A stretch of 17,415 nucleotides of DNA. Source: Thermoproteaceae archaeon (GTDB lineage Archaea; Thermoproteota; Thermoprotei; Thermoproteales; Thermoproteaceae). How positions within the stretch are numbered: the first letter of the stretch is position 1; every line of letters begins with the position of its first letter. The DNA lies in contig JAJHRB010000031.1 in the NCBI GenBank assembly GCA_020833025.1, positions 1 through 17,415 on the forward strand, written 5' to 3'. A model generated the notes under the pieces. The model was not told where the DNA came from. It did no database searches and was given only the letters and a program-made list of their open reading frames with translations. A program made the translations under genes and the position numbers. Below, in pieces: positions 3,482 to 9,281 of this stretch.

Positions 3482-3760
3482 ATGTCGCCCTAGGCGCGGC
3501 AGAAAGTCGCTGCGCTTTTGAGGGTGCAGGAGGAGTTCCGCACGTGGACCGCCGAGCGGGCGAGAAGCGGCGTGGAGTCTGCTTTGCGAAAAATGCGGCG
3601 AGGTTTATCGTCAAGCCGGCGCGAAAATGCAGGAGCCGCCAGAGAGGCGCGTTAGCTGCCCGAGGTGCGGCCTAGAGGCGAGCAGGGATGAAGCGTCCAT
3701 CATGCGGGCAGTGAAGCGCTTTGACGAGCTGCTCCAGGCCGCAAAGTTCCAATCCCGCTC
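3482..3760 (+). mobile_element. Probable decayed, internally deleted IS200/IS605 TnpB-like (zinc-ribbon) remnant
   Basis: Frame 3 gives CEKCG...GAKMQEPPERRVSCPRCGLEASRDEASIMRAVKRF, resembling the TnpB C-terminal CxxCG..RD zinc ribbon, with no in-frame start upstream of CEKC. Frame 2 gives MSP*ARQKVAALLRVQEEFRTWTAERARSG, a helical fragment interrupted by a stop. Family assignment is from recall, not a search. Confidence 0.4.
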
Positions 3761-4786: not shown

Positions 4787-4951
4787 GCGAGCTCCGGCAC
4801 GCACGCCGGGAGCCGGTGCCGCCGCGAGGGGCGTTGAGACTGGCGAACACCAAGCGCACGCCTTTGGCCGGCTCTGCGCCCCCGCTAGCGGCGCTCTCCG
4901 CCAGCAGGCCTGGGCCCGGGCGCGCGCCGCGACAGAGCTCTCGATCGCGGC

Positions 4952-4966
4952 AGAAATGCTTAAAAG
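4952..4966 (+). promoter_or_regulatory. BRE/TATA-like motif (AGAAA-TG-CTTAAAAG) upstream of the solitary CRISPR repeat
   Basis: The only AT-rich patch in a GC-rich intergenic region. It predicts a start at about 4988-4992, just before the repeat at 4996. It could instead be the T-tract terminator of the phosphorylase on the minus strand. Confidence 0.55.
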
Positions 4967-4995
4967 GGCGCGGGGAGGCGCGGCCAGAGGGCCCT

Positions 4996-5019
4996 GAATC
5001 TCAAAAGAAGGATTGAAAG
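4996..5019 (+). CRISPR. Solitary 24-bp CRISPR-type repeat GAATCTCAAAAGAAGGATTGAAAG (no array)
   Basis: It ends in the canonical ATTGAAAG 8-nt handle. It differs at 2 of 24 positions from the Pyrobaculum/Thermoproteus repeat as I recall it (GAATCTCAAAAAGAGGATTGAAAG). No second copy found in the window. Confidence 0.7.
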
Positions 5020-6482
5020 TACCGCTCCAGGTAGCCGTACTCGCGGAACGCTCTGTCCATCGAGAAGTACTCCCGGAACGTGGCGTACGCGTTATACGCA
5101 ACCTCCCAATACCTGCTGCTGCTGTATGCGTCGAGCGCCTCCTCGACCTTGCGCTTGAAGTCATCGTACTCCCTCAGCTCCACCTCGGGGCTATCCAGCG
5201 GCAGCAGCACGTCCCTGTTGTCGCCGAAGAGCCAGCCGTTGAAGCCGTCCCTGATAGCCTCGACCGCGGCCCCGTCTCTCGAGGCTACTGACGGCACGCC
5301 GTTAATGCCGGCCTTCATGAAGGACGTGCCGGAGGCCTCCCAGCCGCTGAACGGCGTGAAGAGCCAGATGTCCGACGCCCATATTACCCTCCTGGCCGTG
5401 TCTACTGTGAGGTCAGGAAAGTAGTACACGTTGCTCCTAGATCTCGCGAGCTCCTTGAACTTCTTCATCATGTGGAGGCCGAACTTGTCGTGCGGGTGCG
5501 CGCGCCCGCCGAGTATGAACACGGCGTCGCTCTTAAGCTCCTCGATGAGCTGCGCCACAAAGTGAGGCCTCTTGTACTGGGTCACTCGGCGGGCCCACGA
5601 GATGACAACCTTGCCCTCGGCGCCCGCTCCGAGTGCCCTCAGCGCCTCCCTCTTGACCTCTTTTCTCGCTGCTCTCAGCTCGTCCGCGCTCTTGACTCCC
5701 GAGACCCTCGGGTGCTCCCACCGCGGTATCTCCACGGCGTTTGTCACGGCTCTGAACTTGAAACAGTGGTGGGGGAATATCCTGCAGACAACTCTCATCA
5801 TCTTCTTCGACACGGTGACCCCCTCGGAGCTCATTGCAAGCCCAAGCTCTGCCGCGACGACCGGATCCATCGCCGTGTCAAAGCCGAACTCGTCGCTGAA
5901 CAGCTTCTTGTGGAACGCGGGAAAGCACCAGGGAGCCGGGGTGTGTATGACTAGCCTGGCGCGCGGGTGGCGCCTGAAGAGCAGCACGAACGCCGCGTAT
6001 GACTCCTGCAGGTCGAGGTACTTGACGCTGTCCCAGCCGACAAATTGCTCGATGTAATTAACGGCCCCCCTCGCGAGTATTAAATACTTGTAGAACCTAT
6101 CGCGCTCAGACCCCTCCAGATACAGCCGGCCTGCCGCCCTGACGGCCCATTCAGGCCCCTCGACTTTTATGAAGACTGCCGTCGCGCTGCCCTGCCTGTA
6201 GGCGTAGTAAGATGCGAGCACTCTACCTCCCCCGAGCTGAAGCTCCGAGCCGCCGGCGTATACAAGCCTCTCATCCAGCGGGTTCTCCTCGGGCGCCGGG
6301 ACGAGCTCCCCGCCCTCCTCTCTGTACGTCACGTAGCCCTGCGGGTAGTACAGCGTTATCACCGTGTAGGGGATATTGAGCCTCGCAGCGGCGTAAAACT
6401 TGTCGCCCTCGAGCACGCCCAGACCGCCGGCGTAGCCCCTCATGAAGTCGAGCGCCAGCTCCGGCGTCACGGACACGATCAC
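5001..6482 (-). CDS. glgP: Alpha-glucan (glycogen/maltodextrin) phosphorylase, compact archaeal GT35 form
   Basis: YAGGLGVLEGD (N-terminal motif), IHTP, VTNAV, WARRVTQYKR, GGRAHPHD, WEASGTSFMKAGING (PLP-lysine motif). Confidence 0.9.
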   Translation of the reverse strand: MIVSVTPELALDFMRGYAGGLGVLEGDKFYAAARLNIPYTVITLYYPQGYVTYREEGGELVPAPEENPLDERLVYAGGSELQLGGGRVLASYYAYRQGSATAVFIKVEGPEWAVRAAGRLYLEGSERDRFYKYLILARGAVNYIEQFVGWDSVKYLDLQESYAAFVLLFRRHPRARLVIHTPAPWCFPAFHKKLFSDEFGFDTAMDPVVAAELGLAMSSEGVTVSKKMMRVVCRIFPHHCFKFRAVTNAVEIPRWEHPRVSGVKSADELRAARKEVKREALRALGAGAEGKVVISWARRVTQYKRPHFVAQLIEELKSDAVFILGGRAHPHDKFGLHMMKKFKELARSRSNVYYFPDLTVDTARRVIWASDIWLFTPFSGWEASGTSFMKAGINGVPSVASRDGAAVEAIRDGFNGWLFGDNRDVLLPLDSPEVELREYDDFKRKVEEALDAYSSSRYWEVAYNAYATFREYFSMDRAFREYGYLERYFQSFF

Positions 6483-8056: not shown

Positions 8057-9265
8057 ATGATATTGCTCGCCAGGCTGTTCGAGGGGCCGAACAACGGCAT
8101 GGCGTACGCAGTGGCGCCCGTAGAGGACAGACACAAGGTCCTCCCCGCGCGCGACCCGCTGAGAGACGCGGCGGAGCTCGCCCGGAGGGGAGAGAGGTTC
8201 CTCGTGCTGTACAGCCTCTCGACGCTGACGTTTGCCGAGTACTGGCGGGAGGTGGCGGAGGTGGCGAGGAGGTATCCCGTGGTCGCCGGGGGGCCCCACG
8301 CAATCAGCGACCCCGCGTCCCTCCTGAGGCTCGGGGTCAAGTACGTGGTCGTCGGCGACGGCGAGGTCGCGCTCCCGGCAATTATAGAGAGGGAGCTCGG
8401 GCGGACTGACGAGGTGCCGCCGAACACGCTAGTGATGGAGGGAGGGCGCGTCAGGGCAGGCAGGCGCGTGTACGCCGAGCTCACCCAGAGGACCTACAGC
8501 GCGTCCCTCGGCATATACCCGCCCATAGAGATCATGAGGTCGTGCAGCTTCAGGTGCGCGTTCTGCAGCACGTGGGCCCGCGGCCCCGTCAGGTACAGGC
8601 CTGTCGAGAGCGCGGCCGAGATGGTGCGGGCCTACGTGGCCGCGGGGCGCCGGGAGATCAGGTTCATAGCGCCTGTGGGCTTCCTCTACGGCTCCGAGGA
8701 CGGCAGGACGCCAAATATCGACGCGCTCGTGAGGCTGCTGAGAGCAGTCAGAGATGCGGGCGGGGCTCCCTACCTGGGCACGTTTCCCTCGGAGACAAGG
8801 CCGGAGACCGTCACGAGGGACGTGCTGGGCGCGATTAAGCCGTATGTCGCGAACAGGCGCATTGCCTTCGGCCTCCAGACAGCGTCAGAGAGGCTCCTCA
8901 AGGCGATCAGGAGAGATCACGACGCCGCCTCCGTTGAGGAGGCCGTGAGGGTCTCTACTGCAGCCGGCTTCAAGCCCGTCGTCGACGTTATAGGGGGCCT
9001 TCCAGGCGAGACCGAGGAGGACGTGCTCGAGAACATTAGAGAGATGGAGAGGCTGATAGCAATGGGCGCGCGCGTGCGCATTCATTACTACATCCCGCTC
9101 CCGGGCACGCCGCTCTGGGGTCTCGAGCCGGCGCCCCCGCACCGGCTCTACAGCGAGTTCCTCAGGCGCTACAGGACAAAGGTAGAGGGATACTGGGAGG
9201 AGCAGATAGCGCTAAGCCGCAAGATTCTGGACACGTACAGGGAGCTCTATCAATCCCTCTCTTGA
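8057..9265 (+). CDS. B12-binding domain / radical SAM protein (TIGR04013-like)
   Basis: VVAGGPHA and VVVGDGE (B12-binding-like), EIMRSCSFRCAFC (CX3CX2C), LGTFPSETRPE, IGGLPGET, YYIPLPGTPL. TATA-like CTTTAAC at about 8030-8036. Confidence 0.85.
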   Translation: MILLARLFEGPNNGMAYAVAPVEDRHKVLPARDPLRDAAELARRGERFLVLYSLSTLTFAEYWREVAEVARRYPVVAGGPHAISDPASLLRLGVKYVVVGDGEVALPAIIERELGRTDEVPPNTLVMEGGRVRAGRRVYAELTQRTYSASLGIYPPIEIMRSCSFRCAFCSTWARGPVRYRPVESAAEMVRAYVAAGRREIRFIAPVGFLYGSEDGRTPNIDALVRLLRAVRDAGGAPYLGTFPSETRPETVTRDVLGAIKPYVANRRIAFGLQTASERLLKAIRRDHDAASVEEAVRVSTAAGFKPVVDVIGGLPGETEEDVLENIREMERLIAMGARVRIHYYIPLPGTPLWGLEPAPPHRLYSEFLRRYRTKVEGYWEEQIALSRKILDTYRELYQSLS

Positions 9266-9281
9266 GATCCCGGCGCGAGCC

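Follow-up and report, generated by a model that had tools for sequence, protein, structure and literature searches.

A solitary CRISPR leader-repeat unit at the 3' end of a glgP-like gene in a Thermoproteaceae archaeon, a probable scar of self-targeting

The leader, promoter and repeat at the glgP end

We analysed a 17,415-nt stretch of DNA from a Thermoproteaceae archaeon (GenBank assembly GCA_020833025.1, contig JAJHRB010000031.1), here called the window. It is contig C10 of a 1.56-Mb metagenome-assembled genome (MAG) in 126 contigs (62.6% G+C, 93.9% completeness), the closest relatives of which are Pyrobaculum and Thermoproteus. The subject of this report is a single CRISPR repeat that lies behind a leader and a promoter at positions 4914-5019 and reaches into the 3' end of a minus-strand gene for a glgP-like alpha-glucan phosphorylase. 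A first-pass annotation of the window, made from the sequence alone, had noted a BRE (B recognition element)/TATA-like motif and one 24-bp repeat at this place; both are present, and the sequence proved to be the leader and promoter of the genome's own CRISPR arrays. The features of the locus are as follows.

4914..4995, plus strand: CRISPR leader fragment of about 82 nt, apparently copied; absent from the sister alleles without the unit
4953..4966, plus strand: BRE/TATA-like promoter gaaatgcttaaaag, with the same motif and spacing as in the array leaders
4996..5019, plus strand: complete 24-nt CRISPR repeat GAATCTCAAAAGAAGGATTGAAAG, identified by its copies in the genome and by Rfam CRISPR-DR45
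5012..5019, plus strand: predicted 8-nt 5' handle ATTGAAAG, from Cas6 processing of this repeat class
5020..5059, plus strand: probable former self-protospacer and now predicted guide; CCC precedes this stretch in sister alleles
5001..6482, minus strand: glgP-like alpha-glucan phosphorylase gene, 493 aa (Pfam Phosphorylase PF00343, E 1.3e-10)

In an alignment that took in nine further units besides the C47 array, the leader at 4914-4995 showed 94-95% identity to the leader on contig C44 of the MAG and 79% identity to the leader of the true array on contig C47, and approximately 80-150 nt upstream of the repeat aligned with the latter. The arrangement of TTAAAA, 29 nt, and repeat precedes every leader-repeat of this genome and of the genus, and gaaatgcttaaaag is the counterpart of AAAAACTTAAAAA, the CRISPR promoter that is nearly invariant in Pyrobaculum (Bernick et al. 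2012, PMC3396285). This spacing predicts a transcription start near 4987-4991 (about 4989). A scan for sigma-70 promoters and hairpin terminators gave no matches, archaeal signals being outside its model.

The 24-mer GAATCTCAAAAGAAGGATTGAAAG was matched in none of 200 shuffles of the window with up to three mismatches allowed, but it has eight exact copies genome-wide, all of them solitary, and agrees at 23 of 24 positions with the unit of a 63-repeat array (C47:26217-30318). The exact variant was also found inside mini-arrays of two to three repeats from the same metagenome. Rfam CRISPR-DR45 matched the repeat at 33.6 bits (E 2.4e-4, 22/24 to the consensus), which is slightly below the gathering score of 37 because of two central substitutions that are common to this genome's own arrays. 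These copies and the family match verified the repeat-family assignment of the first pass. No second repeat was detected within 130 nt of 4996-5019 with up to three mismatches, and a leader-repeat-gap-repeat pattern was also unmatched. Thus, 4914-5019 is not a CRISPR array in the sense of two or more repeats, although it carries the leader and promoter of one.

Public sources name the relatives of the 5001-6482 protein starch or glycogen phosphorylase; an exact database look-up of the 493-aa sequence gave no match, and its 90% protein cluster of seven members was the source of the sister alleles described below. The plus strand from 5020 is the reverse complement of the 3' end of this open reading frame, so that 5020-5059, a 40-nt length assumed from the spacers of the C47 array, is antisense to approximately the final 13 glgP codons ahead of the repeat. 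The earlier statement that the repeat is followed by the antisense of the last glgP codons therefore stands from 5020 onward, but the reading frame runs on, and its stop codon TGA (5001-5003) and last five codons (FQSFF) fall within the repeat. The protein ends in GYLER/YFQSFF in the window, whereas the proteins of two sister alleles (A and B, below) end in GYLER and those of other Pyrobaculum and Thermoproteus end in GY(L/I). An ancestral TAG has become TAC at 5019-5021, and as a result the frame continues through YFQSFF to the TGA inside the repeat. Because the stop lies there, the glgP mRNA would cross the complement of the repeat and carry the full anti-tag.

Sister alleles, the genomic family and the junctions

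Four states of the locus, A, A', B, and C, were distinguished, and the gene order glgP, GH57, DUF123, and radical SAM around the unit was the same in five sister contigs. Allele A (contig L121, approximately 96% identical) is free of CRISPR sequence and carries a unique spacer region, about 160 nt long. Allele A' (L119, flanks 99.3-99.6% identical) has an internal deletion of that region and also lacks the unit; both contigs have unrelated DNA at the position of the leader. In allele B (L120), the leader and repeat are followed by the 16 nt cgcacctctaacaccc and then by the TAG stop, while in allele C (the window, L117, and L122), which was found in at least two JGI (Joint Genome Institute) samples, the repeat is joined directly to ta/ccgctcc. 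Between B and C, 8 of 82 leader positions and 1-2% of the flanks are different; the repeats are identical (24/24). Since sister strains that are more than 99% identical have no unit, it is a recent gain that remodelled the end of glgP.

An assembly artefact, in which a multi-spacer array was collapsed to one repeat, might be suspected in a MAG of 126 contigs whose solitary units are absent from closed relatives. However, the identical leader-repeat-glgP junction was obtained in the JGI assembly, an ENA MEGAHIT assembly (L117), a Logan assembly with k=31 (L118, a contig that covers 31 nt of the multi-copy leader and then terminates), and a second JGI sample (L122). As three assemblers gave the same junction, one of them with a k of 31 that exceeds the 24-nt repeat, this is not a collapsed array. 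In addition, allele B has the same solitary repeat with its junction shifted by 16 nt, and the 63-repeat array on C47 was assembled normally. Collapse was rejected on the agreement of assemblers and samples, and we regard it as scarcely credible. A metagenome scan for the repeat/glgP junction gave no match; the same kind of scan for the 24-mer returned nine contigs, some with mini-arrays of this variant, with flanks that are not in the MAG.

The unit is not unique but one of approximately 25 solitary repeats in two families, which often abut gene ends. All eight exact 24-mers stand behind the same leader, with unique DNA on their downstream side; in these eight intact units the repeats are identical and the leaders 65-98% identical, which fits recent copying from active arrays. 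A census with nhmmer added further degenerate copies and a second leader/repeat family (repeats resembling GTCGAATCTCAAGAAGGGTTGAAAC) that occurs both in arrays and as solitary copies. Over both families, 27 of 110 repeats had no neighbour within 130 nt, two of the 27 being array ends. Several units are decaying or have no TATA box, and older degenerate ones are common to a divergent strain. In five closed genomes of the genus, all leader-repeats (15 of 15) have a second repeat, compared with 1 of 10 here, and leaders of this family number 1-5 per genome, all heading arrays, against 10 in the MAG. Conservation of the arrangement in related genomes, which the first pass had proposed as a check, is contradicted by the strains that are more than 99% identical and lack the unit.

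The genes beside the units are unrelated and include those for ribosomal protein S17, GMP synthase, a sugar nucleotidyltransferase, and a radical SAM protein, among others. Eighteen of the 27 solitary repeats face a convergent gene, in 10 cases within -38 to +22 nt of its stop codon. At some co-directional units, a start codon abuts the repeat. This was seen at C11:1058-1627 (minus strand) and C50:27765 onward, where the start codon of the downstream open reading frame adjoins the last repeat base and Cas6 cleavage would leave the 8-nt handle as the sole 5' untranslated region.

Some spacers of the arrays in this MAG match its other contigs. Two spacers of the C47 array do so perfectly, and the protospacers are preceded by CCC and CCA; from these two, CCN is the protospacer-adjacent motif (PAM) of this system. 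CCN is also known as the PAM of crenarchaeal type I-A systems. We then examined the four junctions of the first repeat family, at three loci, whose ancestral state could be reconstructed from unit-less or longer alleles. The three ancestral nucleotides before the repeat join were CCG (C10, allele B), CCC (C10, allele C), CCG (C9, where ribosomal protein S17 has lost its last 33 codons to the repeat), and CCG (C66, with agreement between a JGI and a Logan contig). With a CC frequency of 0.083 in the genome, the chance of four out of four is approximately 5e-5. The DNA after the solitary repeats thus begins exactly where a protospacer would begin.

The left junctions vary in position and fall within stretches of microhomology to the leader (gggcgc at C10, ccgcggcg at C66). 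Ancestral DNA is missing on the PAM side only, over 75 to approximately 220 nt. The copied tract at C64 is cut within the repeat and measures 22 nt; those at C66 and C10 come to 67 nt and about 105 nt, and the one at C9, which brings a TnpB gene along, to about 1.8 kb. Contigs C11 and L108 have 361 nt upstream of the repeat in common and differ downstream, the pattern that copying of one donor into two targets would produce.

The first pass had asked for the cas6, type I, and type III-B content of the genome, and all of these genes were found. A cas6 gene was identified by TIGR01877 at C46:28985-29620; unlike TIGR01877, Pfam Cas6 PF01881 gave no match in the genome. Cmr2/Cas10 is encoded at C46:22370-24235 and three RAMP genes at C46:18576-21737 (type III-B, Cmr). 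The type I genes are cas1 and cas4 on C118, a Csa2-type Cas7 on C106, and a Cas3 helicase on C85. The genome therefore has both the cas6 and the type III effector that a Cmr CRISPR RNA (crRNA) requires. Two identical solitary repeats of the second family flank the Cmr cluster in direct orientation (C46:16584-16608 and C46:28623-28647), and cas6 lies outside this pair.

Origin of the unit and alternative explanations

We consider it probable, at about 0.6, that 4914-5019 is a scar of CRISPR autoimmunity, in which a leader and repeat were copied from an array into a self-protospacer and its PAM was erased. The order of events that we infer would start with a spacer acquired from the cell's own glgP 3' region beside a CCN PAM; such donor spacers would carry 5020-5059 or a sequence beginning with cgcacctctaacaccctaccg. 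The targeted or recombining site may then have been repaired with an array copy (leader-repeat-spacer) as template or partner, the spacer giving homology on one side. Copying would have extended across the repeat and on into the leader, to be rejoined at a microhomology with deletion of the DNA on the PAM side. This PAM-side loss would fit the degradation by Cas3 in the upstream direction, as known from type I systems.

The same course of events would account for further features of the family. Without a PAM for type I and with a perfect anti-tag in the mRNA for type III, the rewritten target would be immune even if the donor spacer persists. Units would be expected at the borders of genes, where the DNA lost can be spared or the leader promoter takes over from a lost one. 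Identical repeats with varied leaders would also follow, as would old decaying units shared with a divergent strain. Given some 25 units with the signature of PAM-dependent self-spacers, a by-product of autoimmunity is indicated rather than a purpose-built regulator of glgP.

Several points weigh against this origin. The routes of escape from self-targeting listed in a review are mutation of the target or PAM, large deletions, and the loss of spacers or of cas genes (Wimmer and Beisel 2020, PMC6990116); the list does not include repair of a self-target from an array template, which is a proposal of ours. Only four junctions at three loci were available, and two perfect protospacers are the basis of the PAM. 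Three of the four junctions have an ambiguity of 1 nt, because the N of CCN is a G there and the repeat also ends in G. The 78 assembled spacers included no match to the glgP site, and thus no donor spacer was found among them. The bias toward convergent genes (18/26, two-sided p = 0.076) is weak on its own and was for that reason not relied upon as evidence of function. Finally, the divergence between the leaders of alleles B and C requires either gene conversion or a second copying event, which may have taken place at the neighbouring PAM, perhaps following primed acquisition.

The first pass had proposed that the locus yields a guide that acts on the glgP mRNA without autoimmunity and links CRISPR to glucan metabolism, and the structural prerequisites for such a guide are all present. 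Cas6 processing of this repeat class is established and leaves a 5' handle. The leader promoter would now drive an RNA that contains a complete Cas6 substrate from about 4989, and cleavage would yield AUUGAAAG followed by glgP antisense. Cmr loaded with this guide might cut the glgP mRNA while Cas10 stays inactive, in keeping with the handle/anti-tag properties of type III systems as summarised in PMC6990116. A Cas6-processable antisense guide to glgP is accordingly predicted from the locus sequence, but the origin of the unit points to a by-product and not to a dedicated device. As there is no T-tract downstream on the plus strand, a long antisense transcript with transcriptional collision is also possible. 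For the other suggestion of the first pass, a decoy RNA of the solitary-repeat or CreA type, there was no specific support.

That a selected, cis-antisense crRNA-like regulator guides Cmr to the glgP mRNA is consistent with the promoter, repeat, cas6, and Cmr genes, with a guide that is fully complementary to the last glgP codons and an mRNA that would carry the anti-tag, with a repeat that, in contrast to the leader, is unchanged between alleles B and C, and with the recovery of allele C from more than one sample. We rate it as unlikely all the same, because strains more than 99% identical have no unit and similar units, several of them decaying or TATA-less, adjoin unrelated genes. The unit could also be an ordinary array stripped of its spacers by repeat-repeat recombination, or a naive leader and repeat ready for acquisition, with its position at glgP incidental. 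A leader with a single repeat is the minimal substrate for spacer integration, and the metagenome contains mini-arrays of one or two spacers with the same leader and variant (L105-L107). Nevertheless, an array of this kind leaves unexplained the CCN at all four ancestral junctions, the leaders cut at different microhomologies, the repeats fused into coding ends, and the excess of leaders over the closed relatives, where all head arrays; we therefore find it quite unlikely.

A mobile promoter or terminator cassette, spread by transposition of a miniature inverted-repeat transposable element (MITE) or with an insertion sequence (IS), or kept as the terminator of a convergent gene, is in our judgement improbable. 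At C9 and C11 the leader does have a TnpB gene (PF07282) directly upstream, one metagenome contig (L107) has inverted repeats around the leader, and the complement of the repeat contains TTCTTTT, so that the T-rich complement of repeat and TATA box could terminate a convergent gene; a reverse-strand poly-T terminator has been noted in Pyrobaculum repeats (Bernick et al., PMC3396285). Against this, 8 of the 10 TnpB copies have no leader or repeat nearby, the insertions of 67-105 nt at C10 and C66 show no transposase, target duplication, or fixed left end, and a terminator role does not explain junctions adjacent to PAMs. We judged the TnpB/IS link to be incidental or donor-derived; only 2 of 10 tnpB genes adjoin a leader, and the left ends of the units vary. 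Beside the C10 unit no convincing tnpB was found, the nearest candidate being a weak sub-threshold match at 3579-3692. The MITE idea, which came from L107, was likewise set aside, since the distal end of the leader at C10 has no inverted repeat. The TnpB/Cas12f-like genes at C9:24334-25449 and C11:1684-2553 (both minus strand) have the same orientation as the leader-repeat, and the tnpB frame on C11 enters the leader and stops in the TATA box.

The proposed scar shares with the arrays of Pyrobaculum and Thermoproteus (PMC3396285, CRISPR-DR45) the 24-nt repeat class ending in ATTGAAAG and the promoter distance. It differs from them in having no spacer or second repeat, in a leader cut to about 82 nt, and in its place among housekeeping genes, far from cas genes and fused into a coding end. 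Archaeal viruses and plasmids carry leader-bearing mini-arrays, some with a host-like BRE/TATA, and stand-alone repeats that are leaderless (Medvedeva et al. 2019, PMC6858448); solitary repeats of phages act as RNA anti-CRISPRs (Racr, PMC10651486). Like the viral and plasmid stand-alone repeats, the unit is a single host-like repeat outside an array, but unlike these and Racr it is chromosomal, has a leader, and lies in conserved synteny (glgP, GH57, radical SAM).

The crRNA-like regulators (CreA, crlRNA, scaRNA, and mini-arrays) lie in or beside cas loci, belong mostly to types I, II, or V, and pair partially with promoters, whereas type III repeat-like elements have been judged to be degraded repeats and repeat-like sequences are depleted outside cas loci (Shmakov et al. 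2023, bioRxiv 10.1101/2023.03.03.530964). As with CreA and crlRNA, a repeat-derived RNA from outside an array could direct a Cas effector to a host gene; in contrast to them, the pairing here is perfect, in cis, and at the 3' end of the mRNA, the copies number approximately 25, and the cas genes are on contigs other than C10 (C46, C85, C106, and C118). Compared with the self-targeting escapes reviewed in PMC6990116, the outcome is the same, in that the PAM is lost, adjacent DNA is deleted, and the cell survives, but the copying of repeat and leader is not listed there.

Engineered mini-CRISPR constructs have been used for type III-B knock-down in Sulfolobus and Saccharolobus, where a crRNA lowers a host mRNA and complementarity to the handle spares the DNA. 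Those constructs are artificial, plasmid-borne, and have two repeats; the present unit is natural, cis-encoded, and has a single repeat, and its activity is predicted. In the CRISPR literature searched, no dense chromosomal set of leader-plus-single-repeat units with PAM-adjacent junctions has been described.

More tentatively, and with somewhat less than even confidence, we suggest that solitary leader-repeat units are an undescribed outcome of autoimmunity, which disguises the targets and at the same time installs a promoter for crRNA-like RNAs, as cis-antisense or in 5' untranslated regions, at about two dozen genes. Such RNAs, if this holds, would be raw material for type III-based gene regulation. 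Should the scar model be true, it would describe a new way of surviving self-targeting, in which the target is rewritten as a CRISPR locus. It would explain the spread of leaders and repeats, the remodelled gene ends (glgP, S17, radical SAM), and the donation of strong promoters, and it would offer a natural route from immune guides to host-gene guides, with a bearing on endogenous regulation by type III systems. The model can be checked in metagenomes, through PAMs at more junctions, and in tractable Sulfolobales. Taken alone, the conservative part of these results still documents spacer-less leader-repeat units in a cellular genome with unusual clarity and density.

A second solitary repeat in the window and minor observations

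Another solitary repeat, without a leader, was found elsewhere in the window.

9247..9270, minus strand: second solitary repeat GGATCTCAAGAGAGGGATTGATAG, without leader, fused to the 3' end of the gene at 8057-9265

This repeat has two mismatches to the repeat of the cas1-adjacent array on C118. The B12-radical SAM gene at 8057-9265 (plus strand) ends in TYREL/YQSLS, its last five codons and TGA being derived from GGATCTCAAGAGAGGGATTGATAG; this repeat-internal TGA corresponds to the one used by glgP. Relatives of the radical SAM protein have a tail of 13-14 aa (..YLxxxTTPSSTAS) in place of YQSLS.

Partial repeat duplications occur beside some solitary repeats, in the forms repeat plus AAAGAAGGATTGAAAG, GAATCTCACCG plus repeat, and repeat plus ct plus GAGGATTGAGAG (C44:2153-2192, minus strand; L105:786-820; L091, from G013:C82), and suggest slippage or aberrant repeat duplication. 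A solitary leader-repeat that ends in GAAAT and is followed by gaagg was present at C1:1280-1303 (minus strand) and in another MAG of the genus (L087, from G009:C37), and may be a conserved solitary unit.

Among the arrays, a spacer of the second family (C103:897-950) matches C106:1280-1329 over 50 nt with 100% identity, inside the genome's own cas7 (C106:1099-1968). The protospacer is preceded by TTC, and the match could reflect self-targeting or regulation of the type I effector. In a second-family array at C103:1042-1236, one 42-nt spacer occurs three times in tandem, which may be a tandem spacer-repeat duplication or an assembly loop. On two contigs of the metagenome Ga0326760 (L107:1-243 and L106:1-120), a 123-nt leader lies between inverted repeat copies and has a divergent mini-array of two to three repeats abutting its distal end; one spacer-repeat unit sets the two contigs apart.

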